This document shows positions 4,933 to 61,180 of a stretch of 64,000 nucleotides of DNA, piece by piece. The position numbers were made by a program, and so were the translations under genes. Source of the DNA: a virus. Its lineage: Duplodnaviria; Caudoviricetes. The first letter of the stretch is position 1. Every line of letters starts with the position of its first letter. The DNA is taken from the IMG/VR virus record IMGVR_UViG_3300042402_003952; one strand, written 5' to 3'. Under the pieces are notes generated by a model that did no database searches, was not told where the DNA came from, and saw only the letters and a program-made list of their open reading frames with translations.

Positions 4933-6096
4933 ATGCCTACCAAATCTAACATTATGATCGACCAAGCAATCTCCATCCTGAAAGAAAAGTTTGGCACCGA
5001 GTTTGGTGTCGATGCAGTGAAAGAAGTTGCAAATGAAATTGGCACTTCGTATGCGACCCTTTCCAAATACTTGAATCAGTATAAAGTGGGTCGTGGTAAA
5101 TGGAATCTGGAGGCAACCGTGCAAGAACTTGAAGAAACCTACAACTCTCCTGCTGTAGAAGGAACTGATACGGTTCCTGGTGTGGCAACTATGAACTCTG
5201 TTGTGCAAAATCTCATTCCCAACAAAGATGCTACCTTCGTCAGCTTTGGTAATTTTTCGGATATTAAGAAAGTTATTCAGTCTGGTCTATTCTATCCTGC
5301 TTTCATCACTGGTCTTTCTGGTAATGGAAAAACTTTCGGTGTGGAACAGTCTTGTGCCCAACTTGGTCGGGAACTGATTCGTGTCAATATCACTATTGAG
5401 ACTGACGAGGATGACCTGATTGGTGGTTTCCGATTGGTGAATGGTGAAACCGTGTGGCATAATGGTCCTGTGGTAGAAGCAATGGAACGTGGTGCTATCC
5501 TTCTGCTGGATGAGGTTGACCTTGCTTCTAACAAGATTATGTGTCTGCAATCTGTTCTTGAGGGTAAGGGTGTCTTCCTCAAGAAAATCGGTAAGCACGT
5601 TGTTCCCAAGTCAGGTTTCAACGTGATTGCAACCGCAAACACCAAAGGTAAAGGTTCTGATGACGGTCGGTTCATTGGCACGAACGTTCTCAACGAGGCA
5701 TTCCTGGAACGATTCCCTATCACCTTTGAGCAGGAGTATCCTACTGTCAGCGTTGAAACAAAAATCTTGACTAAAGTTGCAGAATCACTTAATATTCCTA
5801 TGATTGGTGAGCATACTGATTTTATCAAGCACCTTTGTACCTGGTCTGAGATTATTCGTAAGACCTTCAACGATGGTGGTATTGATGAAGTCATCAGCAC
5901 TCGTCGTCTGGTTCATATCATCAAGGCATATTCTATCTTCGGTAAGAAGGACAAAGCAATCAAGGTTTGTCTTAATCGTTTTGATGATGAAACCAAAGCA
6001 ACTTTTGTTGAGTTGTATGACAAGATCGACGCAGAGTTCAAAACTACTGAAAGTGAATATGTGACATACGACCTTGACCACCAACAACAATCCTGA
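4933..6096 (+). CDS. cobS: MoxR/CobS-like AAA+ ATPase
   Basis: GLSGNGKT Walker A, LLLDEVD Walker B, ATANTKG, LNEAFLERF. Confidence 0.9.
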   Translation: MPTKSNIMIDQAISILKEKFGTEFGVDAVKEVANEIGTSYATLSKYLNQYKVGRGKWNLEATVQELEETYNSPAVEGTDTVPGVATMNSVVQNLIPNKDATFVSFGNFSDIKKVIQSGLFYPAFITGLSGNGKTFGVEQSCAQLGRELIRVNITIETDEDDLIGGFRLVNGETVWHNGPVVEAMERGAILLLDEVDLASNKIMCLQSVLEGKGVFLKKIGKHVVPKSGFNVIATANTKGKGSDDGRFIGTNVLNEAFLERFPITFEQEYPTVSVETKILTKVAESLNIPMIGEHTDFIKHLCTWSEIIRKTFNDGGIDEVISTRRLVHIIKAYSIFGKKDKAIKVCLNRFDDETKATFVELYDKIDAEFKTTESEYVTYDLDHQQQS

Positions 6097-6151: not shown

Positions 6152-6652
6152 ATGTCTGAAAATTTTGAGAGCACTTACAAAAGTACAATTCCAAATCAAG
6201 ATTTCTGGGAGTATGATGGTATTAGCATGACAGGAAATCCTTACCCATCTACAGACACTATTACCTTTACTGGTTCTCGCCTTCCTGGTGGATTGGGCGA
6301 TGATCATATTTCACTCTCAAATTTTACTATTAAAATGACTGAAGATACTAACAAGAATGGTTTCTGGAAATACGAAGAAGACAAAACTCTGAAAGAGATT
6401 GAGCAATATCTTTCCAGCACTTATCACCAACACTATACTTCTCAAGAATCCAAAACTCAAACTTTGGATTTGATTGAAAGCATTGGTGATGCTGAACCAT
6501 TCACGCGATCAAATGCTATCAAGTATCTGTCTCGTTTTGGTAAAAAGAATGGTAAATCGAAAATGGACATTCTGAAAGCGATCCATTACTGTATTCTTCT
6601 TTATCATTTTGCAGGTCTACATAAGAATACTACTTCTGATTTTCCATATTGA
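6152..6652 (+). CDS. DUF3310-like (putative nucleotide kinase family) protein
   Basis: YHQHY...NAIKYLSRFGKKNGKSKMDILKAIHY pattern. Confidence 0.7.
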   Translation: MSENFESTYKSTIPNQDFWEYDGISMTGNPYPSTDTITFTGSRLPGGLGDDHISLSNFTIKMTEDTNKNGFWKYEEDKTLKEIEQYLSSTYHQHYTSQESKTQTLDLIESIGDAEPFTRSNAIKYLSRFGKKNGKSKMDILKAIHYCILLYHFAGLHKNTTSDFPY

Positions 6653-20563: not shown

Positions 20564-21862
20564 ATGAAAAGATTTTCTCAATTTATATTAGAAGCAAAAG
20601 AAACCAGGGCATCTGAGCAAGCTAAGAAACTTGGTTTAGTTGGTAATGGTCATGGGGATTGGTATAACTCCCAGGGAGAATTTGTTGCTAAAACTGTAGA
20701 TGGGCAATTAAAATTTTTTAATAAAGGACAAAGAATTGGATTAAGAGATATTCCACCAAAATCTGGACAAGGAAGAGGAGCATCTGCTAAGGCACAACAG
20801 CAAGTATCTCCACAACAAACTCAAGGTCAGCAAATTTCTCCTCAAAGAATACCTATTGGGCAAGATGAGCAAATGCCTGCGGATGATGAGTTTTTAACAA
20901 TTGTTCTTGCTAAATTTAATCCCCCATCAAAGGAGCATAAAAAATTATTTACTACTGCAAAAAGAGTTTCTTTAGGTGGAGAATTAAGAATTTATCCATC
21001 TAGAACTCAAGATACTAAATCAAATCCATTAACTGTAAATAGAAAAATTTATTATTTGAAAATGATGTTTCCTGAAATTAAAGATGATATTGTAAATAAT
21101 CCAGAAATTAAAACAATATTTGATGTGTTAATTGCAGGAAATGAAGACGGATATACGAATGTAAATATTGTTGTTGGATCTGATCGTCAAGCCGAAATAC
21201 AAAATCTAGCAAATAAATATAATGAAAAATTTTATCAGTACAATGAAATAAAAGTAATTCCTACTGGAAATTTTGATTCAGGAAAGGATAGTTCGGGAAT
21301 TTCTTCTGGTATGATGAAAAAAACTGCTGCTGACAATAATTTTAGAGAATTTAAAAGAGCCGTTACTAAAAATGTTGATGACCTTGATGCTAGAAAATTG
21401 TTTAATGAACTCAGGAAGGCAATGGGATTTAAAGAAAATGTTAAGGAAAATTATAATCTTTGGGAAATTGCGCCAGAATTAGACTTTAAAAATTTGAGAG
21501 AAAATTATATCCAAAATAAAATTTACAAAATTGGAGATATTGTAGAAAATGTGAATACTGGTCTGGTGGGTAAAGTTATACGTAGGGGGACAAATTATTT
21601 GATATGCGTCACTGAAGAAGATGTTATGTTTAAATCCTGGATAAAAGATATTGTTGAGTACAATGAAGTTAAAATGGATAGTTTGATGAGGGATAAAACT
21701 CACCCAAATACTCTTGTTGGAACTTTGGGGTCATTTAAATATCATGCAAAAATGACTCCAGGTGCAATTGGAACTAATAAGAAAAATCTTCAGTATGGGG
21801 GTAAAGCATATGGAGTAAATTTTATAAATAAGTATAAGGCAAAAAAAGCAAGTACTTGTTAA
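20564..21862 (+). CDS. Cyanophage cytidyltransferase-like (HIGH-superfamily nucleotidyltransferase) protein
   Basis: FNPP..H, YPSRTQD..SNPL, NIVVGSDR, SSGMMK. Confidence 0.8.
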   Translation: MKRFSQFILEAKETRASEQAKKLGLVGNGHGDWYNSQGEFVAKTVDGQLKFFNKGQRIGLRDIPPKSGQGRGASAKAQQQVSPQQTQGQQISPQRIPIGQDEQMPADDEFLTIVLAKFNPPSKEHKKLFTTAKRVSLGGELRIYPSRTQDTKSNPLTVNRKIYYLKMMFPEIKDDIVNNPEIKTIFDVLIAGNEDGYTNVNIVVGSDRQAEIQNLANKYNEKFYQYNEIKVIPTGNFDSGKDSSGISSGMMKKTAADNNFREFKRAVTKNVDDLDARKLFNELRKAMGFKENVKENYNLWEIAPELDFKNLRENYIQNKIYKIGDIVENVNTGLVGKVIRRGTNYLICVTEEDVMFKSWIKDIVEYNEVKMDSLMRDKTHPNTLVGTLGSFKYHAKMTPGAIGTNKKNLQYGGKAYGVNFINKYKAKKASTC

Positions 21863-33717: not shown

Positions 33718-33906
33718 ATGTCAGTATCACAAGAACTCTTAAATGCTGTTGAAGTGTGGAAAGTAGAAGATGAAAAATTTACTACAGGAAACAATTCTGC
33801 AGGAACTCGCGCTCGTAAAGCACTTCAAGAAATTGCTAAATTAGTTAAATCCCGTAGAGCAGAAATTGCAGAGGAAAAAAATTCCCGTAAAGAAGCAAAG
33901 GGTTGA
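33718..33906 (+). CDS. Histone H1-like (Hc1-type) small DNA-binding protein
   Basis: KFTTGNNSAGTRARKALQEIAKLVKSRR; TATAAATA upstream. Confidence 0.7.
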   Translation: MSVSQELLNAVEVWKVEDEKFTTGNNSAGTRARKALQEIAKLVKSRRAEIAEEKNSRKEAKG

Positions 33907-34056: not shown

Positions 34057-34325
34057 GATGTAATCCATAAAGCAAAATACAGGGGAGAGAAACCAAAAGT
34101 TTCCTCCCTTTTTTTATGCTTTGTGCCACTTGTTCAACTGGTCGTATCATTTGCCATTGGGGTCCAAACCCTGGTATATTACTTGAGTTGGTGGGGGAAC
34201 GAGACCCCAAGTGCCTAGGACCACTTCTGGAACTGGCACAAACCACTTGATTCCCAACGGGTTCTGTGGTATTCTTAAGGAGTGGTTGAGAGACCACCAG
34301 CACCTTGACAATCTAAACCTTTAAT

Positions 34326-34398
34326 GGGTCTGTTGCATAGCGGCTAATGCACCTGGCTTTTAACCAGTATATCGTGGGTTCGAGTCCCACCAGACCCA
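34326..34398 (+). tRNA. tRNA-Lys(UUU)
   Basis: Cloverleaf, loop CU-UUU-AA, GGUUCGAGUCC T arm. Confidence 0.92.
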
Positions 34399-34436
34399 TT
34401 GACCGCTACAGTTCGGTCATTAAACATAAACTGTTC

Positions 34437-34520
34437 GGGTAGGTGTCCGAGTGGTTAATGGAGGAGGTCTGTAAAACCTCTGGCTCTGCCTACGGGGGTT
34501 CAAATCCCTCCCTGCCCACC
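34437..34520 (+). tRNA. tRNA-Tyr(GUA)
   Basis: GAGGU-CUGUAAA-ACCUC, long variable arm. Confidence 0.92.
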
Positions 34521-34522
34521 TT

Positions 34523-34596
34523 GACCCATTAGTGTAGCGGTTTATCACGCCACCCTGTCACGGTGGAGATCACGGGTTCAAATCCCGTATGGGTCG
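34523..34596 (+). tRNA. tRNA-Asp(GUC)
   Basis: CCACC-CUGUCAC-GGUGG. Confidence 0.92.
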
Positions 34597-34644
34597 TTGC
34601 TACGCTGCCTGTGGAGTATTCCTCCTTGGTGGTTGTAGCATCAT

Positions 34645-34719
34645 GGTCCTATCGTCTAGTGGTGAGGACATCACTCTTTCACAGTGAAGACACGGGTTCA
34701 AATCCCGTTAGGACTACCA
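34645..34719 (+). tRNA. tRNA-Glu(UUC)
   Basis: UCACU-CUUUCAC-AGUGA; encoded CCA. Confidence 0.92.
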
Positions 34720-34796
34720 CGGAATGTAGCGCAGTTTGGTAGCGCATCTGTTTTGGGAACAGAGGGTCGCAGGTTCGAATCCTGTCATTCCGACCA
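34720..34796 (+). tRNA. tRNA-Pro(UGG)
   Basis: UCUGU-UUUGGGA-ACAGA; encoded CCA. Confidence 0.92.
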
Positions 34797-34869
34797 GGAA
34801 ACATAGCTTAGTTGGTAAAGCATTCGACTGATAATCGAAAGAGCACTGGTTCGAGTCCAGTTGTTTCCA
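34797..34869 (+). tRNA. tRNA-Ile(GAU)
   Basis: UUCGA-CUGAUAA-UCGAA. Confidence 0.92.
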
Positions 34870-34892
34870 TTGTTGCCTTAAGGCAACATTAA

Positions 34893-34982
34893 GGAAGTGT
34901 GGCAGAGAGGTCTAATGCAGTGGATTGCTAATCCGCCGATGTTCTTTAAGGGCATCCGTTGGTTCGAATCCAACCACTTCCG
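34893..34982 (+). tRNA. tRNA-Ser(GCU)
   Basis: GUGGA-UUGCUAA-UCCGC, long variable arm, G73. Confidence 0.92.
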
Positions 34983-35069
34983 TAGGACTCCAGCAAGGTG
35001 CTTGCTAGGATATAAAAGACTGACGCCTCCCTCTTCAGAAAGAGTAACCAGCAGGTCAGCGTCCACTTT

Positions 35070-35141
35070 GGCAGTGTAGTTCAGTGGTAGAACAAGAGAT
35101 TCATACCCTCTATGTCGGTAGTTCAATTCTACCCACTGCCT
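35070..35141 (+). tRNA. tRNA with CAU anticodon (Met or Ile2)
   Basis: AGAGA-UUCAUAC-CCUCU (31:39 mismatch); GGCAGUG/CACUGCC acceptor. Confidence 0.8.
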
Positions 35142-35142
35142 T

Positions 35143-35215
35143 GTGTCGTTAGCCTAGTGGTTAAGGCAGTAGTTTGTGGAACTACCTAGATGGGTTCAAT
35201 TCCCATACGACACCC
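35143..35215 (+). tRNA. tRNA-His(GUG)
   Basis: GUAGU-UUGUGGA-ACUAC; G-1 and C73. Confidence 0.88.
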
Positions 35216-35216
35216 C

Positions 35217-35288
35217 GCCCTTATAGCTCAGTGGTAGAGCAACTCACTAGTAATGAGTAGGTCGTTGGTTCAAATCCGACTGAGGGCT
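35217..35288 (+). tRNA. tRNA-Thr(AGU), A34 anticodon
   Basis: ACUCA-CUAGUAA-UGAGU; canonical D and T arms. Confidence 0.88.
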
Positions 35289-35323
35289 CTCAACTATCTG
35301 AAATTTCCAGATAGTTCATACAA

Positions 35324-35395
35324 TCCAGAATCGACTAACTGGCAGGTCAGCACCCTTTGAAGGTGTACGTCTAGGTTCGAATCCTAGTTCTGGAA
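35324..35395 (+). tRNA. tRNA-Gln(UUG)
   Basis: GCACC-CUUUGAA-GGUGU; U1-A72. Confidence 0.9.
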
Positions 35396-35396
35396 T

Positions 35397-35590
35397 TGCC
35401 CCTAATGGGGCAACAATCTGTCCAACACTGGGGTTCGACTCCCCACATCTCCACTCTTGGGGATGAACTGGCATTCGACTGGGCAGAGGGTTCTGAGAAT
35501 AAATCTCAACAACATCGTATCTTTCCGCAGAACTGCTGTTGCCGTTTGAGCAATAGCACTTTGAGCGAACTGGGGAGTAATCCCTTTTTC
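35397..35590 (+). ncRNA. ssrA: Two-piece (circularly permuted) tmRNA: acceptor piece ~35397-35453, intervening 35454-35458, coding piece from 35459; tag ORF 35505-35549
   Basis: T arm GGGG-UUCGACU-CCCC; acceptor GGGGAUG/CAUCUCC-A with G3.U70; D loop AACUGGCAUUCGAC; P2 UGGGCAGA/UCUGUCCA; tag LNNIVSFRRTAVAV*. Confidence 0.9.
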
Positions 35591-35591
35591 T

Positions 35592-35666
35592 GTTGGGTTG
35601 GTGCAATTGGTAGCATCTCGGTCTCCAAAACCGAAGATCAGAGTTCAAGTCTCTGGCCCTTCGCCA
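35592..35666 (+). tRNA. tRNA-Trp(CCA), two U-U mismatches in acceptor stem
   Basis: UCGGU-CUCCAAA-ACCGA; encoded CCA. Confidence 0.82.
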
Positions 35667-35667
35667 T

Positions 35668-35744
35668 ACCCTCTTAACTCAGTGGACCAGAGTGCTTGGC
35701 TACGAACCAAGAAGTCGCAAGTTCGAATCTTGCAGAGGGTGCCA
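35668..35744 (+). tRNA. tRNA-Arg(ACG)
   Basis: CUUGG-CUACGAA-CCAAG; encoded CCA. Confidence 0.9.
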
Positions 35745-35781
35745 TTTAAATCTAAATAGCAACAAGAGGTGTGATAGGAAA

Positions 35782-36252
35782 ATGGAATTAGTAGAACCAC
35801 ACTCAACTATACTAGTTTTGAATAGTTCTTACGAGCCACTACACTTCACTAATTGGAAACGTGCAATAGTTTTACTTTTCAAACAGAAAGCAAAACTTAT
35901 CTCCAAGAGAATTATTCGTTTGGTGAATTATGTGAAAATTCCATTTTCCTATGGAAGATCAGATTACCCGACGAGAGCACTCATCTATAAACGGGATGAT
36001 TATGAGTGTCAGTATTGTGAGTCTAAAAATGACCTTACAATTGACCACATAATTCCCCGCTCAAAAGGTGGTAAAGATACTTGGGATAATTTAGTTGCTT
36101 GTTGCACATCTTGTAATCTCAAAAAAGGAAATAAACTTCTTAAAGAGACTAATATGATCTTAAAGAGTATTCCGCAAGCACCAATTAGTAGAGTAATACT
36201 TGATATTCAGAAAACAAAAGTTTCTGAATGGAAGGACTATTTGTTTCAGTGA
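35782..36252 (+). CDS. HNH endonuclease (McrA-like) inside tRNA array
   Basis: CQYC...TIDHIIPRSKGG..WDNLVACCTSCNLKKG. Confidence 0.88.
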   Translation: MELVEPHSTILVLNSSYEPLHFTNWKRAIVLLFKQKAKLISKRIIRLVNYVKIPFSYGRSDYPTRALIYKRDDYECQYCESKNDLTIDHIIPRSKGGKDTWDNLVACCTSCNLKKGNKLLKETNMILKSIPQAPISRVILDIQKTKVSEWKDYLFQ

Positions 36253-36347
36253 GAGATTGACAAATTTTTGAAAATACCCTAATATATAAAGACAGAGGTT
36301 AAGTCCCTGTTACATCCTTATGAGGTGTATCACACTTAATCCATCAT

Positions 36348-36422
36348 CGTGGGGAAGTGTAATGGTTGCACAGAAGTCTCATAAGCTTCAGGTAGGTGGT
36401 TCAACTCCATCCCCCGCCTCCA
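36348..36422 (+). tRNA. tRNA with CAU anticodon and unpaired C1 (initiator-like, atypical)
   Basis: GAAGU-CUCAUAA-GCUUC; C1:C72 mismatch; encoded CCA. Confidence 0.75.
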
Positions 36423-36495
36423 GCCCTTGTATTCCAATGGTAGAGAAGGTGGACTTAGAATCCATACAGTGTAAGTTCGAATCTTACCAGGGGCA
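36423..36495 (+). tRNA. tRNA-Leu(UAG), short variable arm
   Basis: GUGGA-CUUAGAA-UCCAU. Confidence 0.82.
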
Positions 36496-36535
36496 CTTGA
36501 CAATCAAACTTAAATAGTTTATAATTGTCTTATAA

Positions 36536-36607
36536 GCGGAGTTAGTTCAGCGGTAGAACGCTATCCTTCCAAGTTAGATGTCGTCGGTTCGATTCCGATA
36601 CTCCGCT
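36536..36607 (+). tRNA. tRNA-Gly(UCC)
   Basis: CUAUC-CUUCCAA-GUUAG; U73. Confidence 0.9.
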
Positions 36608-36659
36608 CTGAACCTTCGGGTTCTATAAACACACAAACACACTTCATAGGAGAATACTT

Positions 36660-36857
36660 ATGACGCCTTATCAACTTAGATTTGAAGTTTTTAAGCAAGC
36701 TTATGCGATGCTTTCGGATAATTATCATGTAGAGTTTGCAAAAGCAGAATGCTCTAATGGTGGCAAATTGCCGGATGGATTTGATTTAAAATATCCAACT
36801 CTTTCTGATGTTCTTGGGCACGCAGAAACGATTAATGATTTTGTAAGTTCTAAGTAA
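36660..36857 (+). CDS. Small hypothetical protein within tRNA array
   Basis: MTPYQLRFEVFKQA...YPT...AETINDFVS; SD AGGAG. Confidence 0.65.
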   Translation: MTPYQLRFEVFKQAYAMLSDNYHVEFAKAECSNGGKLPDGFDLKYPTLSDVLGHAETINDFVSSK

Positions 36858-36865
36858 TAGAACAT

Positions 36866-36937
36866 TCCCCTGTGGCGCAGCGGTAGCGCGAGAAACTGTT
36901 AATTTCCAGGTCACAAGTTCGAATCTTGTCGGGGGAG
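36866..36937 (+). tRNA. tRNA-Asn(GUU)
   Basis: AGAAA-CUGUUAA-UUUCC; G73. Confidence 0.9.
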
Positions 36938-36956
36938 TTGCTATCAGTAGCAAACT

Positions 36957-37036
36957 GTAGGTGCCAAATACCCCTTCTGGTTAATGCTGGAAGAAGTAAA
37001 GAGTGTGGACATAGGTAAAGTCCACAACACCTACCA
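36957..37036 (+). ncRNA. Candidate three-way-junction RNA
   Basis: GUAGGUG/CACCUAC encloses CUUCUGG/CUGGAAG and GUGGAC/GUCCAC hairpins. Confidence 0.5.
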
Positions 37037-37039
37037 CAA

Positions 37040-37111
37040 CCTCTGGTAGTCTATTGGTAAGGACGGGCGGATAACGCACTTGGAAACTAGGTTCGATTCC
37101 TAGACAGAGGT
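37040..37111 (+). ncRNA. tRNA-like element with non-canonical anticodon arm
   Basis: CCUCUG/CAGAGG acceptor, GUCU/GGAC D stem, CUAGG-UUCGAUU-CCUAG T arm; anticodon arm only GCG-GAUAA-CGC. Confidence 0.6.
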
Positions 37112-37114
37112 AAC

Positions 37115-37187
37115 GGGAGCATAGCTCAGCGGTAGCAGCGTCTGCTTTACACGCAGAATGTCGGGGGTTCGAATCCCTCTGCTCCCA
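37115..37187 (+). tRNA. tRNA-Val(UAC)
   Basis: UCUGC-UUUACAC-GCAGA. Confidence 0.92.
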
Positions 37188-37214
37188 CTTGCATAAATAT
37201 TGAAAAAGAGTATA

Positions 37215-37649
37215 ATGGAAAAACTGTTTAAACTTTTAAGTGATGCTCAGTCATCACTTTTTGTTTTATTTCATAAAACTTGGGCATTTCATTGGAATGT
37301 AGTTGGTGAAGATTTCACACAACTACATCAACTCTTTGGTGGACAGTATGAGACTATGTTTGAAGAGATTGATCGTCTTTCTGAACATATGAGATACTTA
37401 AATGTAAAACCATTAAGTTCTCTTTCAAGAATGCTTGAAGTGACTCAAATCAAAGAGTCTGCAAGTTCAACTGGAGCAAAAGAAATGCTTCAGGAACTTC
37501 TGGATAATAACACCAAGTTTTGTGAGTTAATGGCAGAGATTTCGGAAGAAGCAGAAGAACAAAAGTCTTATGCAACTGCCAATCTAGTTCAAGACTTAAT
37601 GGAATCTCATGGTAAATTTGTATGGATGTTGAGATCACATTTACAGTGA
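37215..37649 (+). CDS. dps: Dps/ferritin-like DNA-protection protein
   Basis: HWNVVGEDFTQLHQLF..QY..EEID..EH ferroxidase motif; W(M)L at C-terminus. Confidence 0.9.
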   Translation: MEKLFKLLSDAQSSLFVLFHKTWAFHWNVVGEDFTQLHQLFGGQYETMFEEIDRLSEHMRYLNVKPLSSLSRMLEVTQIKESASSTGAKEMLQELLDNNTKFCELMAEISEEAEEQKSYATANLVQDLMESHGKFVWMLRSHLQ

Positions 37650-37664
37650 TAAGGATGAAGAAAA

Positions 37665-37916
37665 ATGATTTCAATAAGATGTAAAGATTGCAATAAAGAA
37701 TTAACAGGACACCCATCAAAAACAGTTACTTGTGGGTGTCCTAATATGGCAACAATTCGTGGAGACAAGATTTCGGCACTTGACTTATCTCGAATTGTCA
37801 TGCTAAACTCTCTAAAAGAAAATCAAAACAAAAGTGTGCTTACTTCTCAAGACATTGCTTGGCAAGAAGCACGTCGTCAACGTAAAGTAAGACGACTTGA
37901 TTTTGAAGTCCGTTGA
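37665..37916 (+). CDS. Small Cys-rich (zinc-ribbon-like) hypothetical protein
   Basis: CKDC...CGC. Confidence 0.65.
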   Translation: MISIRCKDCNKELTGHPSKTVTCGCPNMATIRGDKISALDLSRIVMLNSLKENQNKSVLTSQDIAWQEARRQRKVRRLDFEVR

Positions 37917-37927
37917 GGACTTAATTT

Positions 37928-38014
37928 GGAAGGTCAATCCGATTGGCGACGGAACCGCTCTTGAAAAGCGTTGAGGTGTTAAAGCCCTTGGGAGTTCGAC
38001 TCTCCCACCTTCCG
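37928..38014 (+). tRNA. tRNA-Ser(UGA)
   Basis: CCGCU-CUUGAAA-AGCGU, long variable arm, G73. Confidence 0.9.
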
Positions 38015-38127
38015 TTTAGAAAAGTTACAAATTTAACAATTTCTTCAACAGTGTTAAGATATCAACACAAAAAGTTGACTGCGAAATACCTGTGATTAGT
38101 ATATAGTAGTATCACGGGGACGAACCG

Positions 38128-38277
38128 ATGGATCAACATACTTACGAAAATTGGGTGAAAATCAAAGAAACATTTGAAACTTCTGGTAATATTGATAATA
38201 TGTTTTACAAAAGAGCCGTTCAAATTGTTAAAACAAGAGTCGATCCTCTTGCAAAGTTTTTGGGAGATGAGAAGTGA
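38128..38277 (+). CDS. 49-aa hypothetical protein
   Basis: Hand translation MDQHTYENWVKIKETFETSGNIDNMFYKRA... Confidence 0.6.
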   Translation: MDQHTYENWVKIKETFETSGNIDNMFYKRAVQIVKTRVDPLAKFLGDEK

Positions 38278-38444
38278 TGGAACCTGGGGATGAATTTATT
38301 AGTAGGTCTGAAGTGCAGGAGATGATCGACCAAGCTATTGACAAACACAATAAAACTGCTACAATAATATCAGCAGCAATCGGTTCGGTTCTGCTCTTCT
38401 TCTATGCCCACGGCGTCATTGCTATTATAGATAGAGTACAATGA
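38277..38444 (+). CDS. 55-aa membrane protein
   Basis: Hand translation EVQEMIDQAIDKHN...IISAAIGSVLLFFYAHG; TGATG coupling. Confidence 0.6.
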   Translation: MEPGDEFISRSEVQEMIDQAIDKHNKTATIISAAIGSVLLFFYAHGVIAIIDRVQ

Positions 38445-38560
38445 GACACTTTGCTCATTTAATTTTGGATAATCAGGTTTCGCTTTTTATCCTTTGCTAC
38501 CTCTTGACAATGGTTCCAATCATGGGTATAATGATTATACACCAAACAAAAGAAAAATAA
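38441..38560 (+). CDS. 39-aa membrane protein
   Basis: Hand translation MRHFAHLILDNQVSLFILCYLLTMVPIMGIMII; ATGA coupling. Confidence 0.5.
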   Translation: MRHFAHLILDNQVSLFILCYLLTMVPIMGIMIIHQTKEK

Positions 38561-38636
38561 CGGAGTATCGCCTAACTTGGTCATGGCACCTGCTTTGGGA
38601 GCAGGAATAATTTCGGTTCAAATCCGAATACTCCGA
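38561..38636 (+). tRNA. tRNA-Pro(UGG), second copy
   Basis: CCUGC-UUUGGGA-GCAGG. Confidence 0.9.
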
Positions 38637-38652
38637 TCATAAAAATAACTTT

Positions 38653-38880
38653 ATGAAAATGCAAGAACTAGAAGAACTTCAATCCTTTACAGTCGAAGAG
38701 TTTCAATCTGATTTTGACAATCTAATACAAAGAGTAGAAAACGGTGAATCATTTATCATACGAGATGGAAATAATAGCGCAGTGATAGTTCCTTACAACG
38801 AAACCATAAAGTACGCAATAGAATCAACTGTGGATGACGAACTGATACGTCTTCACACAGACCACGAAGAAGGTTCTTGA
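38653..38880 (+). CDS. Phd/YefM-like antitoxin-fold protein (orphan)
   Basis: SFTVEEFQSDFDNLIQRVENGESFIIRDGNNSAVIVPY resembles the Phd/YefM N-terminal pattern. Confidence 0.55.
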   Translation: MKMQELEELQSFTVEEFQSDFDNLIQRVENGESFIIRDGNNSAVIVPYNETIKYAIESTVDDELIRLHTDHEEGS

Positions 38881-38919
38881 CACAGAGTTCCAGATCCTCT
38901 ATAATAGATTCAGATTCAA

Positions 38920-39007
38920 GCGAGTGAGACTTGGTAGTCAGAGGGCACTTATAACGCCTTTCCGCCAGATTAGCGGCTTTGACCTGGTTCGAATCCAGGC
39001 ACTCGTA
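38920..39007 (+). tRNA. Atypical tRNA with UAU anticodon and long variable arm
   Basis: GCGAGUG/CACUCGU acceptor, GACU-UGGU-AGUC mini D arm, loop CUUAUAA, CCGC/GCGG variable arm, CCUGG-UUCGAAU-CCAGG. Confidence 0.65.
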
Positions 39008-39036
39008 TTGTTATTCGTGATTTGCGAATAGCGAAT

Positions 39037-39109
39037 GCCCGTTTGGCCCTCTGGTGAAGGCAATCTGCTCATAACAGATAGAAGGTCGGATCGTAACCGA
39101 CAACGGGCA
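39037..39109 (+). tRNA. tRNA-Met(CAU), elongator-like, T loop AUCGUAA
   Basis: AUCUG-CUCAUAA-CAGAU; GCCCGUU/AACGGGC. Confidence 0.85.
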
Positions 39110-39157
39110 TTTTTTAATAAAACTCATATAAATAAATAGGACTGTCCTATTATAAGT

Positions 39158-39778
39158 ATGAGTTGTAAAAAGCAAGGTTTATTTGATAAACATCATATTG
39201 TCCCAAGATATATGGGTGGGACAGATAACTTTGATAATTTGGTTACAGTATCGAGGACTTGCCATACGATGTTTCATTATTGTAACTGGAATCTATGGAA
39301 CAACAAAGAAGATTATATTGCGTATAAAGGATTGTCTTCTCAAATAACAAAACAAGATATAATTAAAGAGACTGCTAGTATTGCTGGTAAAAAATCTTAC
39401 AAAAATGGAACTGGGTTATTTTCTCTAACAAAAGAAGAAAAGAAAAAAGCATCTTCAAAGGGAGGTAAAAAAGCAGGGAAATATATGTCACAATCTATGT
39501 GGATAAATGATGGAACACAAAATAGAAGAATATTAAAAATCGAAATATTACCTGATGGTTGGGTAGCAGGTAAAGTTAAAAAGAAAAAAAGAAAAAGATA
39601 TGGAAGAAGTTGGGACGAATATATGGATACATTTAAAGAGGAATATCAAAGTAGAATTGAATACTTAAATGGAGTTGACTTGACAAAATGGGGTATTAAG
39701 ACTAAAATTGCTAATGACTGGGGCATTTCAAGAACACAAGTAAATAGATTTCTTGAAAAACACTATTTACCAGCATAG
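39158..39778 (+). CDS. Free-standing HNH homing endonuclease
   Basis: HHIVPRYMGGTDNFDNLVTVSRTCHTMFHYCNW; related to the psbA intron ORF. Confidence 0.85.
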   Translation: MSCKKQGLFDKHHIVPRYMGGTDNFDNLVTVSRTCHTMFHYCNWNLWNNKEDYIAYKGLSSQITKQDIIKETASIAGKKSYKNGTGLFSLTKEEKKKASSKGGKKAGKYMSQSMWINDGTQNRRILKIEILPDGWVAGKVKKKKRKRYGRSWDEYMDTFKEEYQSRIEYLNGVDLTKWGIKTKIANDWGISRTQVNRFLEKHYLPA

Positions 39779-40118: not shown

Positions 40119-40346
40119 ATGTCTAGATCTGATTTACTTCGGTGGATTGGAAACATTCTCCTCATAATAGGATATCAAATCATGTTATGGGGGGATTTCA
40201 AATACGGTTTAATGATAAAAGTTGTTGGAGGACTACTCACAATACCTTTTGCTATTAAACTTAAACTTTGGGATGTTCTATTTTTATGTGCATTCTTTGG
40301 TATTACCGAGATATCAAAGTTAACCCAACTTTTCTTAGTTTCTTAA
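40119..40346 (+). CDS. Small multi-pass membrane protein
   Basis: Three hydrophobic segments. Confidence 0.65.
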   Translation: MSRSDLLRWIGNILLIIGYQIMLWGDFKYGLMIKVVGGLLTIPFAIKLKLWDVLFLCAFFGITEISKLTQLFLVS

Positions 40347-40349
40347 AAC

Positions 40350-40475
40350 TAAGTGGTGGAGCCTCAGAAAGGACCCTCTAGGGTTTATTGCTTCCTTTAA
40401 AGAGCAATTGGTGCGGATGGGGATCTCTCCTGCCTGGTTTCCAATTTCCAGTCAAAGAATTGGTGGCGAGACTGA
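40350..40475 (+). ncRNA. Tandem wcaG-like RNA motif upstream of an NAD-dependent epimerase
   Basis: Two copies of GUUU-stem-UUC..AAAGA-stem-UGG(U)GCG with compensating stems AUUGC/GCAAU and CCAAU/AUUGG; identity recalled, not searched. Confidence 0.6.
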
Positions 40476-40545
40476 GTTTACCTAGAGGAGTTGCATAAAC
40501 TCCTCTTTTTTTGTATAATATATACTAAGAGAATTTTATTAATCT

Positions 40546-58656: not shown

Positions 58657-58682
58657 GAGTCTCTCATAACTCTTAACATTGT

Positions 58683-58765
58683 TAAACACCCATTAACCGA
58701 GACCTATGGGGTGTATAAATTACGTCTCTCATATCTTCTCTAGGGGTGAGAAGAAATATTGAACC
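58683..58765 (+). ncRNA. PhotoRC-II-like RNA motif in psbA leader
   Basis: ACACCCAU/AUGGGGUGU and GAGAC/GUCUC pairings; position upstream of psbA; identity recalled, not searched. Confidence 0.6.
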
Positions 58766-58806
58766 CTGTTCGTCCCCACGAACTCTTACTTAACCCTTTT
58801 TCAAAT

Positions 58807-61180
58807 ATGACTGCTTCAATCGCTTCACGCCGTTCTGGCGAAAACCTCTGGGAACAATTCTGTTCCTGGGTAACTTCAACCGATAATAGACTGTATGTTG
58901 GTTGGTTCGGAGTCCTTATGATTCCTTGCCTTCTTGCTGCTACAACTTGTTTTATTATCGCTTTCATCGGTGCTCCCCCTGTAGACATAGACGGTATCCG
59001 TGAACCCGTTGCTGGTTCACTAATGTATGGAAACAACATCATCTCTGGTGCTGTTATTCCAAGTTCTAATGCCATTGGATTGCATTTTTACAGCATCTGG
59101 GATGCTGCTTCTCTTGATGAGTGGCTTTATAAATAATATTGGGTCACTTTAAATCGGGTGAACTGCTGGAAAGCTAAGTTCTTTATGAAACACAAACATC
59201 ACCTTACTCCAAAATATCTTGGTGGTTCTAACGAATCCCAAAATCTTGTAGAAGTTTCTACAACTCAACACGCTATGTTTCATTATTGTAACTGGCGTCT
59301 TTGGGGAAACGAAGAAGATAAGATTGCTTGGAAAGCACTTGCAGGATACTCTAAAAAAGAGGAAATAATTCATCAAGTTATTTCTCTTGCAGGTAAAAGA
59401 GGTGGTAAGGTTGCAAAAGAAAGCGGACAACTTCGGTCTGCTGCTCTTAAACAACCAAGAAGTGTAAGGCAAAAGATTGGTAAAAATCTTATCAACTATG
59501 CCTACAAAAATCCAAAGAATGCAACACAAGAAACTCTTACTAATAGAAAATACAGTAAAGTATTTCACATTTATGAAAAACTAACTGAAAGGACTATTGG
59601 TAATCATCTTGGGGATGTAGTTTTTAATCCAGAAGAAGATAAAACACTCAAAACTGTTTGTTCTATTATTCTGGAAAAATATGGGGTAAAAGTTTATCCT
59701 TCACATCTTAATAGTGTTGCTAATGGAAATAGACTTTTAACAAGTGGTATTTCTTGTAGTTGGATTTTAGAGAATATGCCAATCAGCATCCAAGCCACAG
59801 ACGATACTTCTGTGGAAGGTTCAGAGACTACTGGGTTCAACAAGCGTGTTGAGTAATACCAGATTAGCGCCCGACATCTTATAAAAAATAAGATGAAGAT
59901 ATAGTCCAGTCCATATGGAAACATATGGTTCCCCCGACTGCTATAATGGGGGTCCTTTCCAACTTGTTGTCTTCCACTTCCTCATCGGCATCTACTGCTA
60001 TATGGGTCGTGAATGGGAACTCTCTTACCGTCTAGGTATGCGCCCTTGGATTATGGTTGCTTATAGCGCACCTGTTGCTGCTGCGAGTGCTGTATTCCTG
60101 GTCTATCCTTTCGGTCAAGGTTCTTTCTCTGATGCGATGCCTCTTGGTATCTCTGGTACATTCAACTACATGCTTGTATTCCAGGCAGAGCACAACATCC
60201 TGATGCACCCCTTCCACATGCTTGGAGTTGCTGGTGTCTTCGGTGGTTCTCTTTTCTCTGCTATGCACGGATCTCTTGTCACCTCTAGTCTTGTACGTGA
60301 GACTACAGAAAATGAGTCACAGAACTACGGATACAAGTTCGGACAAGAAGAAGAAACCTACAACATTGTAGCTGCTCATGGTTATTTTGGTCGCCTTATC
60401 TTCCAATATGCTTCCTTCAATAACTCACGTTCACTTCACTTCTTCCTTGCTGCTTGGCCCGTTGTAGGCATCTGGTTCACTGCTCTTGGTGTTTCTACAA
60501 TGGCTTTTAACCTCAATCGTCGGGGTCCCGTCTTAGCAATTTGACGGTAAACATCGGGTGAACTGCTGGAAGCCCTCCATAAATGGGTAATCAGCATCCA
60601 AGTCCAAAGTACACTTTGGAAAGGTTCAGAGACTACCTGAGGAGTTCAGTCTCCTTAATAACAGGAATAAGTGCCCGACATCCTAAATGGATGAAGATAT
60701 AGTCCACTCCTTAAAGATGGTAAATTTAAGGGTTCAGTGCAACGGTTTTAATTTCAATCAGTCCATCATTGACTCACAAGGTCGTGTCCTTAATACTTGG
60801 GCAGATGTACTGAATCGTGCAGGTCTCGGAATGGAGGTCATGCATGAACGGAACGCTAGATTTGTTGGTGTTCTTGCTTAGGAATAAGCATTAGTAAAAT
60901 CGGGTTAAACGGGGAAACTCTCTATGAGACAATCCCGTACCAAGTCAGAAAGGGTTTAAGTTTTCTGAAAGGTCTAACGACTAGATGGTGAGTCCCAACA
61001 ATAATCCATCCACGAATGCCCGACATCCAGAACGGATGAAGAGATAGTCTGAACTTACTAGTGATAGTAAGAAGTAGAGGATAAAGAACCACTACGATAA
61101 CAAAATTGCACAACTTCCCACTTGACCTTGCCGCAGCAGAAGCAACACCAGTTGCTCTTACTGCTCCCGCAATCGGTTGA
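58807..61180 (+). CDS. psbA: Photosystem II D1, four exons: 58807-59126, 59941-60513, 60740-60857, 61109-61180 (1083 nt, 360 aa)
   Basis: Joined exons restore [39 protein letters not shown] in one frame. Confidence 0.95.
59127..59940 (+). mobile_element. Group I intron 1 in psbA (814 nt) with HNH ORF
   Basis: P1 GAGUGGCU/GGUCACUU with U.G, terminal G, UCAGAGACUA and AAGAUAUAGUCC core. Confidence 0.92.
59185..59856 (+). CDS. Intron-encoded HNH homing endonuclease
   Basis: [29 protein letters not shown]; TATAAATA at 59128; 3' end overlaps intron core. Confidence 0.85.
   Translation: MKHKHHLTPKYLGGSNESQNLVEVSTTQHAMFHYCNWRLWGNEEDKIAWKALAGYSKKEEIIHQVISLAGKRGGKVAKESGQLRSAALKQPRSVRQKIGKNLINYAYKNPKNATQETLTNRKYSKVFHIYEKLTERTIGNHLGDVVFNPEEDKTLKTVCSIILEKYGVKVYPSHLNSVANGNRLLTSGISCSWILENMPISIQATDDTSVEGSETTGFNKRVE
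60514..60739 (+). mobile_element. Group I intron 2 in psbA (226 nt, no ORF)
   Basis: Exon ends in U, intron ends in G; core shares AUCGGGUGAACUGCUGGAA, AAUCAGCAUCCAAG, UCAGAGACUA, AAGAUAUAGUCC with intron 1. Confidence 0.92.
60858..61108 (+). mobile_element. Group I intron 3 in psbA (251 nt, no ORF)
   Basis: P1 GGAACGCU/GGUGUUCU, terminal G, AACGACUA and AAGAGAUAGUC core. Confidence 0.92.

Follow-up and report, generated by a model that had tools for sequence, protein, structure and literature searches.

Outside the cyanomyoviruses, clusters of phage transfer RNA (tRNA) genes have been explained by the evasion of tRNA-targeting defences. For those of T4-like cyanomyoviruses and other large phages, the explanation attributed to Enav et al. 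(2012, as cited in PMC10194205) is compensation for codon usage. Some cyanophages also encode a transfer-messenger RNA (tmRNA) in circularly permuted form, and those of S-CRM01, S-SSM7, S-SSM6a, S-CBWM1 and AG-345-P14 are listed in Table S1 of Buchholz et al. (2022; PMC9004378). Here we describe the tRNA gene cluster of a T4-like cyanophage (positions 34325-39110 of the virus record IMGVR_UViG_3300042402_003952, of which the whole 64,000-nucleotide (nt) stretch is referred to as the window), which holds a reduced tmRNA and the gene for a small antitoxin-fold protein. The sequence identifies its source as a new T4-like cyanomyovirus; among isolates, cyanomyoviruses come closest, the top match being S-PM2 (84% identity, over tRNAs only), and the window is AT-rich (36.6% GC). 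The initial annotation of the region, which had placed 22 tRNA genes, a tmRNA, an orphan antitoxin-fold protein and Dps within about 5 kb, was borne out by ARAGORN, Rfam, Pfam and direct reading: all four are present, on one strand. The reading that we prefer, and consider probable, is that of a cyanomyovirus tRNA cluster with a functional minimal tmRNA that would use host factors and a separate Phd-like module, the parts being inherited independently.

The tmRNA is a circularly permuted, two-piece gene at 35396-35591, filling the previously unannotated 196-nt gap between tRNA-Gln and tRNA-Trp. At standard cut-offs, neither ARAGORN nor Rfam (gathering score) called a tmRNA in the window. When Rfam was run in E-value mode, tmRNA_permuted (RF04321) matched 35427-35478 with 40.4 bits against a cut-off of 47, and beta_tmRNA matched 35419-35486 with 38.4 bits. 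The order of the parts is the permuted one, with the T-arm and 3' acceptor strand upstream and the 5' acceptor strand and coding part downstream. The acceptor piece (35396-35453, + strand), as delineated from partial Rfam matches, folds and compensatory changes, comprises a 5' hairpin (35396-35413), the 3' strand of helix P2 (35417-35423), the T-arm (35430-35444), the acceptor 3' strand (35446-35452) and a discriminator A (35453); CCA is not encoded in it. Alignments place a 5-nt intervening loop at 35454-35458 (+ strand). The coding piece (35459-35591, + strand; Rfam, folds and a terminator-like site) follows, with the acceptor 5' strand (35459-35465), a D-loop analogue (35466-35479), the P2 5' strand (35481-35487), the tag frame, and a 3' hairpin and U-run (35572-35589). 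Sequence comparison puts the tag frame at 35505-35549 (+ strand), with the resume codon CUC, the peptide LNNIVSFRRTAVAV and the stop codon TGA. The tRNA-like domain is complete, having a 7-bp acceptor stem, G3:U70, A73, a T-loop of the GGUUCGAnUCC type, the D-loop analogue and P2, and an unconstrained minimum free energy fold returns the acceptor stem, T-arm and P2 (z = -4.04 versus shuffles).

Alignment identifies this RNA as a reduced homologue of the full-length permuted cyanophage tmRNAs, since it can be matched to validated cyanophage tmRNAs over the tRNA-like domain, the tag and the 3' part. In S-CRM01, S-SSM7 and several contigs, both ARAGORN and Rfam recognise the full-length forms (78-90 bits for Rfam), whose tags include ANNIVSFRRTAVAV and ANNIVSFSRTAVAV. 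A motif scan of IMG/VR found permuted tRNA-like domains at no fewer than 115 viral loci (at least that number), and the reduced form of the window recurs in 15 further contigs, always directly after tRNA-Gln(UUG) and within arrays of 17-30 tRNAs. ARAGORN called a tmRNA in none of these 15 contigs, and the reduced, tag-bearing form was present in no isolate of the phage collection.

The element is well conserved. Its identity across contigs is 94.8% (92-96% over 16 contigs) and that of the tag frame is 99.4% across 15 contigs, compared with 78-91% for the neighbouring protein genes in the same contigs. Among the 16 contigs there are compensatory changes in both flanking hairpins (L010 provides an example in the 3' hairpin), and the sequence of the loop between the acceptor strands is free to vary among relatives; this covariation was read directly from 16 copies that are 96% identical, with the 5' hairpin out of register in the alignment. 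Furthermore, the tag frame differs from that of the ARAGORN-called tmRNA of L103 (tag ANNIVSFRRTAVAV) by five synonymous codons, including CGC to AGG, and by a single non-synonymous one, the resume codon (GCA to CUC), a ratio which argues that the tag peptide is translated. These patterns bear on the possibility that the element is a decaying pseudogene of a full-length cyanophage tmRNA. Such a view would be in keeping with the internal deletion relative to the full-length forms, with the missed ARAGORN and Rfam cut-offs and with the absence of the element from close relatives, but the retention of the element and above all of its tag frame, the compensatory changes in both hairpins and the intact state of all tRNA-like identity elements speak against it, and we consider decay very improbable.

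What has been lost is nevertheless considerable. Compared with full-length cyanophage tmRNAs, some 25-45 nt between P2 and the resume codon are missing, so that a 5-bp hairpin is left in place of the pseudoknot PK1, and the acceptor piece has lost its usual 5' part. The resume codon is CUC (Leu) and not GCN, and the tag ends in VAV. Tags of cyanobacterial tmRNAs usually end in Ala-Ala. Most of the cyanophage tmRNA tags that we compared have no such end (AVAV, PVAV, AQTV, VAAL and LVTA, in L003, L072, L095, L103, L118, L119 and the window), the only tags ending in Ala-Ala being those of L065 (LVAA) and L054 (AVAA, by eye). A systematic change of the degron in phage tmRNAs is possible.

In the mechanism that we propose, the tmRNA would be released from a tRNA precursor by host tRNA-processing enzymes. 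The 3' end of the acceptor piece would be made by a cut after A35453 (by RNase Z or 3' trimming) and the addition of CCA, the coding piece would begin with an RNase P cut before G35459, and the loop at 35454-35458 would be excised. Host alanyl-tRNA synthetase would charge the RNA through G3:U70, and the charged tmRNA would work with host SmpB; a search of S-SSM7, S-CRM01 and three contigs found no SmpB gene, so a phage tmRNA would depend on the protein of the host. During infection, ribosomes that had stalled on broken mRNAs would be released by the tmRNA, their nascent chains receiving (A)LNNIVSFRRTAVAV, and a tag without the usual Ala-Ala end may be a weaker degron. In Synechocystis, tags ending in AAV or ASV are weaker degrons than LVA (PMC2860132).

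The same features could be read in another way, with the RNA as an interfering mimic that titrates SmpB or occupies stalled ribosomes and so damps host trans-translation, or that tags without proteolysis. The missing PK1, the CUC resume codon and the VAV end in place of Ala-Ala (most cyanophage tags deviate too, ending in AV, TV, AL or TA) would suit a mimic, as would a phage without its own SmpB, and the tmRNA of phage DS6A, reduced to its tRNA-like domain, inhibits tmRNA, perhaps by SmpB titration (PMC4131195). However, purifying selection on the tag peptide, as seen in the ratio of five synonymous differences to one, would be needless for a pure SmpB sponge. Moreover, G3:U70 and A73 are kept, and endings of the AAV type still destabilise proteins in Synechocystis (PMC2860132). 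We regard the mimic as unlikely, and a functional minimal tmRNA as the better account of the element.

Several observations on related tmRNA loci were made in passing. In L004 the permuted tRNA-like domain occurs twice, at a spacing of 740 nt (5639-5675 and 6379-6415; the same in L105), and the first copy is followed by a different tRNA-like sequence and not by a coding piece. In the public records, the tmRNA of S-SSM7 (L001/L119, S-SSM7 21008-21227) is annotated as the hypothetical protein SSSM7_025, and that of S-CRM01 (L002/L118, S-CRM01 88361-88533) is unannotated. L065 was considered as host DNA, a view that was rejected when it was recognized as a cyanophage with psbA. An attP-type fragment of host ssrA was likewise rejected as the identity of the window element, because nearly the whole gene, including the tag frame, is present and the phage is related to lytic T4-like viruses.

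The second component of interest is a 75-amino-acid (aa) protein encoded at 38653-38880 (+ strand), starting 16 nt after a tRNA-Pro gene, for which Pfam, PHROG, profile, AlphaFold2, Foldseek and synteny evidence all indicate an orphan of the Phd/YefM fold. On its own, the protein scores 21.4 bits against PF02604, below the cut-off of 29.8, and a phmmer search of the PDB with the single sequence gave chance hits only; it matches phrog_375 ('Phd-like antitoxin') at 5.6e-13. The family does better: 41 of 48 members match PF02604 at E up to 0.01 (best 8.3e-09), and a family profile run against the PDB found VapB46 best (E = 0.0012), followed by Phd and YefM. The AlphaFold2 model has the N-terminal beta-alpha-beta-beta fold, with a predicted local distance difference test score above 90 over residues 10-45, and all of the top 50 PDB hits in Foldseek are antitoxins of the Phd/YefM type, P1 Phd superposing with a root-mean-square deviation of 1.3 Å over 51 residues. 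Prediction of a homodimer gave a score of 0.39 against a mark of 0.42.

In metagenomes this protein has 813 close relatives. The family is compact, with 104 clusters at 50% identity among 1.84 billion representatives and nearly all members 50-100 aa long, and its contexts are those of cyanophages only, even for the most divergent members. In the family alignment, the N-terminal block resembles Phd/YefM, and a motif at the extreme C-terminus is conserved family-wide. In the window, no + strand open reading frame (ORF) of 40 aa or more lies between the Phd-like gene and the HNH gene at 39158, and no toxin-like neighbour was found in 13 isolates, in 80 contigs with tRNA flanks or around divergent members (about 100 contexts), which makes the Phd-like gene a family-wide orphan. 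Thus, the initial description of an orphan Phd/YefM-like protein stands, both in the fold given by AlphaFold2 and Foldseek and in the lack of a neighbouring toxin.

The conserved C-terminal motif most likely grips one conserved partner, for which a type II toxin of the host would be a plausible candidate. Among picocyanobacteria, phd/doc, yefM/yoeB, vapBC and relBE systems occur, and cyanophage infection induces relE at an early stage (PMC5498466), so that a role as an antitoxin mimic is plausible for the Phd-like protein. It might instead bind DNA and regulate the tRNA operon or other early promoters, and be no toxin neutraliser at all. The N-terminal domain is the best conserved and best modelled part of the protein, its counterpart in P1 Phd binds operator DNA (the top Foldseek hits include 4zm2), and the gene lies between two perfect promoters, one of them overlapping its stop codon. 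These points have to be set against the strongly conserved motif at the extreme C-terminus, which is more typical of a partner-binding tail, against the many relatives in which the gene abuts the next tRNA and leaves no room for a promoter, and against the promoters themselves: no operator-like motif is common to those of the island, and the seven best promoter-like sites have nothing in common beyond the -35 and -10 hexamers. On balance, a regulator seems to us rather unlikely, and we favour a partner-binding, antitoxin-like protein.

The linkage of the Phd-like gene to tRNA genes is real. In 70 of 80 viral contigs tRNA-Pro(UGG) lies upstream, ending 15-36 nt before the start codon, and in 72 of the 80 tRNA-Ile(UAU) lies downstream, no more than 53 nt from the Phd stop codon and usually followed by tRNA(CAU); the search with a 10-sequence Phd alignment returned only relatives that were 76-97% identical. 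The order Phd, tRNA-Ile(UAU), tRNA(CAU) occurs in three lineages, the Kyanoviridae, S-TIM5 (Aurunvirus) and S-SKS1 (Llyrvirus), and the Phd-like gene is also followed by both tRNAs in S-SM2, RB11-B, S-H68 and S-SRM01. In the window, the perfect TTGACA-17-TATAAT promoter at 38504-38532 precedes the tRNA-Pro gene, which is the second tRNA-Pro(UGG) of the cluster (38561-38636; unit 38504-38636, + strand; ARAGORN and promoter scan). Another perfect promoter (38877-38905) overlaps the Phd stop codon and is followed by tRNA-Ile(UAU) at 38920-39007 and an atypical tRNA(CAU) at 39036-39110 (unit 38877-39110, + strand, from the same two sources). The Phd-like protein would be a separate, older cyanophage module, an early protein whose gene may be transcribed and processed with tRNA-Pro, tRNA-Ile(UAU) and tRNA(CAU).

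In the public records of S-SRM01, S-H68 and S-SKS1 (L250, L254 and L246), the two downstream tRNAs are unannotated after the Phd-like gene. In the window, the long-armed (class II-shaped) tRNA-Ile(UAU) is the 23rd tRNA of the cluster and was found at relaxed ARAGORN settings only, the default call failing because of an A-C mismatch in the anticodon stem. Default ARAGORN calls at the same place in relatives are identical to it at 78-82 of 88-91 nt, with compensatory changes in the T and anticodon stems, and relatives carry versions of 72-93 nt at this position; in the window the gene has its own perfect TTGACA-17-TATAAT promoter. The tRNA(CAU) at 39036-39110 was called by ARAGORN only, and the Rfam tRNA model did not match it even at E up to 10. 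It has an unusual T-loop (AUCGUAA) and an acceptor stem with C4 and C5, and is a candidate Met or lysidine-type Ile tRNA.

It had also been proposed that the region acts as one island in which tRNAs, tmRNA, Phd and Dps jointly counter translation-targeting abortive infection, the tRNAs replacing cleaved tRNAs, Phd neutralising toxins of the RelE/YoeB/VapC/Doc types and the tmRNA clearing non-stop ribosomes. All the elements do share one strand and a span of 4.8 kb, Phd and tRNA genes are strongly linked, most cyanophage tmRNA loci lie within or beside a tRNA cluster, and the hosts have matching toxin families, with a relE that responds to infection (PMC5498466). Within the lineage of the window, 10 of the 10 contigs long enough to show it carry both tmRNA and Phd, and L095 also has both genes in one tRNA cluster. 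Beyond this lineage and L095 they do not co-occur: no tmRNA was detected in any of 10 Phd-positive isolates, even below threshold, and no Phd homologue in the tmRNA-positive isolates S-SSM7, S-SSM6a and S-CRM01. Similarly, the tRNA-like-domain motif is absent from four large contigs of close Phd-bearing relatives (one of them 174 kb long and 83% complete), in a scan that found its positive control. In the window itself, the tmRNA is about 3 kb from the Phd-like gene, with mobile HNH and Dps insertions and separate promoters in between.

The Dps/ferritin-like gene (37200-37649, + strand; PF00210, 3.5e-23; phrog_3636) encodes a clear ferritin-like four-helix domain (82.5 bits against a cut-off of 24.5) and is a sporadic passenger, with no link to translation. 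It occurs in three of about 12 related contigs (L042, L104 and L112; 60-62% identity) and in one cyanophage isolate, S-SRM01, to whose annotated Dps the window protein is 53% identical. The independent distributions of tmRNA, Phd, Dps and HNH genes imply that these elements are linked to the tRNA cluster and not to each other. From the initial interpretation we therefore retain the tie between Phd and tRNAs and the usual position of cyanophage tmRNAs in or beside tRNA clusters, and give up the idea of tRNAs, tmRNA, Phd and Dps as one unit. The co-occurrence across cyanophages that had been suggested as its check went the other way, with tmRNA, Phd and Dps gained and lost independently. These three are inherited independently, a joint anti-ribotoxin island is not supported, and we hold it to be very unlikely. 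A narrower proposal can be made, in which the cassette of tRNA-Pro, Phd, tRNA-Ile(UAU) and tRNA(CAU), common to three cyanophage lineages, forms a mobile counter-defence module. The conserved C-terminal tail of the orphan antitoxin would disarm a picocyanobacterial toxin of the Doc/YoeB/VapC type while the tRNAs sustain decoding, and some lineages would add a minimal tmRNA without an Ala-Ala degron, recycling ribosomes without destroying nascent phage proteins. We offer this as a speculation and think it quite unlikely.

A number of points weigh against the reading that we prefer, that of a functional minimal tmRNA and a separate Phd-like module. With the PK1 region absent and a non-alanine resume codon, the window tmRNA may not support tagging. 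CCA is not encoded, although the full-length cyanophage tmRNAs also lack it, and the short CCA-less loop is common to all cyanophage tmRNAs compared. Transcript support consists of one RNA-library contig from a relative: this 305-nt contig (run X1) spans 35314-35588, taking in tRNA-Gln and the whole element, and ends at the U-run. It is a hint of a tmRNA transcript, since ends, strand and level are unreadable from such contigs; the four RNA runs compared had at most a 0.10 share of sampled words and gave contigs of relatives or other organisms, mostly over tRNAs. A motif scan of genome contigs for the tRNA-like domain of a host tmRNA, as a reference, gave 120 loci, none of them cyanobacterial. 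As for the Phd-like protein, its N-terminal domain is the DNA-binding domain in true antitoxins, and the Phd-tRNA synteny within the Kyanoviridae is largely inherited by descent, which leaves few independent observations of the linkage (about three lineages).

The region as a whole is a same-strand, multi-promoter set of small RNA genes in which unrelated passengers have accumulated. ARAGORN at default settings finds 22 tRNA genes, all on the + strand (34325-39110); 20 of these 22 pass the Rfam gathering score, and relaxed ARAGORN settings bring the total to 23. The first block (34325-35395, + strand; ARAGORN and Rfam gathering score) contains Lys(UUU), Tyr, Asp, Glu(UUC), Pro(UGG), Ile(GAU), Ser(GCU), CAU, His, Thr(AGU) and Gln(UUG), the tRNA-Thr(AGU) at 35217-35289 having an A34 that is unusual for bacteria and that is kept in most related contigs. 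After the tmRNA come tRNA-Trp(CCA) and tRNA-Arg(ACG) (35592-35744, + strand; ARAGORN and Rfam). A further group at 36348-37188 (+ strand; ARAGORN, Rfam, ORF list and promoter scan) holds tRNAs CAU, Leu(UAG), Gly(UCC), Asn, a weak Leu(UAA)-like tRNA and Val(UAC), together with a 65-aa ORF (36660-36857) and a promoter (36497-36525). The weak Leu(UAA) call of ARAGORN (37039-37112) reaches 30.1 bits in Rfam against a cut-off of 29 and may be degenerate or a mimic. The ARAGORN call of tRNA-Ser(UGA) at 37927-38015 (+ strand) scores just under the cut-off of the Rfam tRNA-Sec model. Many tRNAs of the array carry U34, and the tRNAs would mainly broaden the decoding of the A/U-ending codons of the phage.

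Three perfect sigma-70-type promoters lie inside the island (36497-36525, 38504-38532 and 38877-38905). The passengers comprise two HNH endonucleases, the Dps gene and several small early ORFs. The first HNH endonuclease (35782-36252, + strand; PF01844, 3.5e-16; phrog_16726) is a variable insertion found in two of 15 related contigs, and the second, a homing-type enzyme (39158-39778, + strand; PF01844, 1.8e-07; phrog_655), is a variable insertion found in one related contig. Small conserved ORFs surround tRNA-Ser(UGA) at 37665-38444 (+ strand; ORF list and PHROG), namely an 83-aa Zn-ribbon-like protein (phrog_8074), a 49-aa ORF and a 56-aa ORF (phrog_1096).

Elsewhere in the window, a gene at 33718-33906, just upstream of the tRNA array, encodes a protein of 62 aa with a match to the chlamydial histone H1-like Hc1 family (PF07432, 3.5e-13) and is kept in 11 related contigs. 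A strong wcaG RNA motif (40379-40477, 94.8 bits) lies upstream of a sugar epimerase/dehydratase gene, with a second, weak copy (40289-40368) just before it. Finally, three tandem group I intron matches (51.8-80.3 bits; 59663-61071 and 58674-58767) are found just downstream of a PhotoRC-II RNA motif, and this stretch is probably the psbA region.

This work has consequences for both of its main subjects. The tmRNA of this lineage, for which metagenomic contigs are the only source, ranks among the smallest seen that encode a tag, and an RNA with no PK1, a Leu resume codon and a tag that does not end in Ala-Ala could serve as a natural minimal model for the requirements of trans-translation. Standard tools, with the cut-offs of ARAGORN and Rfam, under-count phage tmRNAs. 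For the Phd-like protein, the RefSeq label 'Phd-like antitoxin' conceals that its gene belongs to a tRNA operon and is accompanied by tRNA-Ile(UAU) and tRNA(CAU) from one phage family to another. We found no discussion of this linkage in the literature, as far as our search reached, and it offers a practical starting point in the search for the partner of the Phd-like protein. The independent assortment of the elements, in turn, stops an unsupported 'island' story from spreading.

In comparison with known systems, the window tmRNA resembles the permuted tmRNAs of cyanophages and picocyanobacteria (RF04321/RF01851) in gene order, the CCA-less loop, G3:U70, the T-arm and P2. It also shares with them the NNIV..F.R core of the tag, the 3' hairpin and U-run and the frequent placement beside tRNA genes. 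However, it is about 190 nt long, against 292-352 nt (ARAGORN) for the cyanophage permuted tmRNAs, and it differs from them in the absence of PK1 and of the usual 5' acceptor part, in CUC for GCN and in its sub-threshold scores. Like the mycobacteriophage DS6A tmRNA, which consists of the tRNA-like domain alone, and tmRNAs that have no coding sequence (PMC4131195, PMC11915505), it is phage-borne and strongly reduced and would need host SmpB; whereas the DS6A tmRNA has little beyond the tRNA-like domain, the window RNA keeps a conserved tag frame and stop codon. Permuted cyanophage tmRNAs and phage tmRNAs of the tRNA-like domain only were already known; the reduced but tag-bearing form was seen in metagenomic contigs and in no isolate.

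The Phd-like protein shares its N-terminal fold, small size and flexible C-terminal tail with Phd of phage P1, YefM and VapB46 (PF02604; 3hs2, 4zm2, 2a6q and 6jqy), and differs from them in having no adjacent toxin, in its restriction to cyanophages, in its own C-terminal motif, in its position between tRNAs and in a score below the Pfam cut-off. Dmd of phage T4 is a phage orphan antitoxin or mimic acting against RnlA/LsoA, with a different fold and a demonstrated target. Like Dmd, the Phd-like protein would be a small early phage protein that has no phage toxin partner and may neutralise a host toxin. Finally, the cluster itself is like those of T4-like cyanomyoviruses and other large phages in being a same-strand array in a hyperplastic region of an AT-rich phage, with small ORFs, homing endonucleases and many U34 tRNAs. 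Set beside the usual phage tRNA clusters it is nothing unusual in kind, and its array includes the long-armed tRNA-Ile(UAU), the tRNA-Thr(AGU) and an embedded tmRNA.

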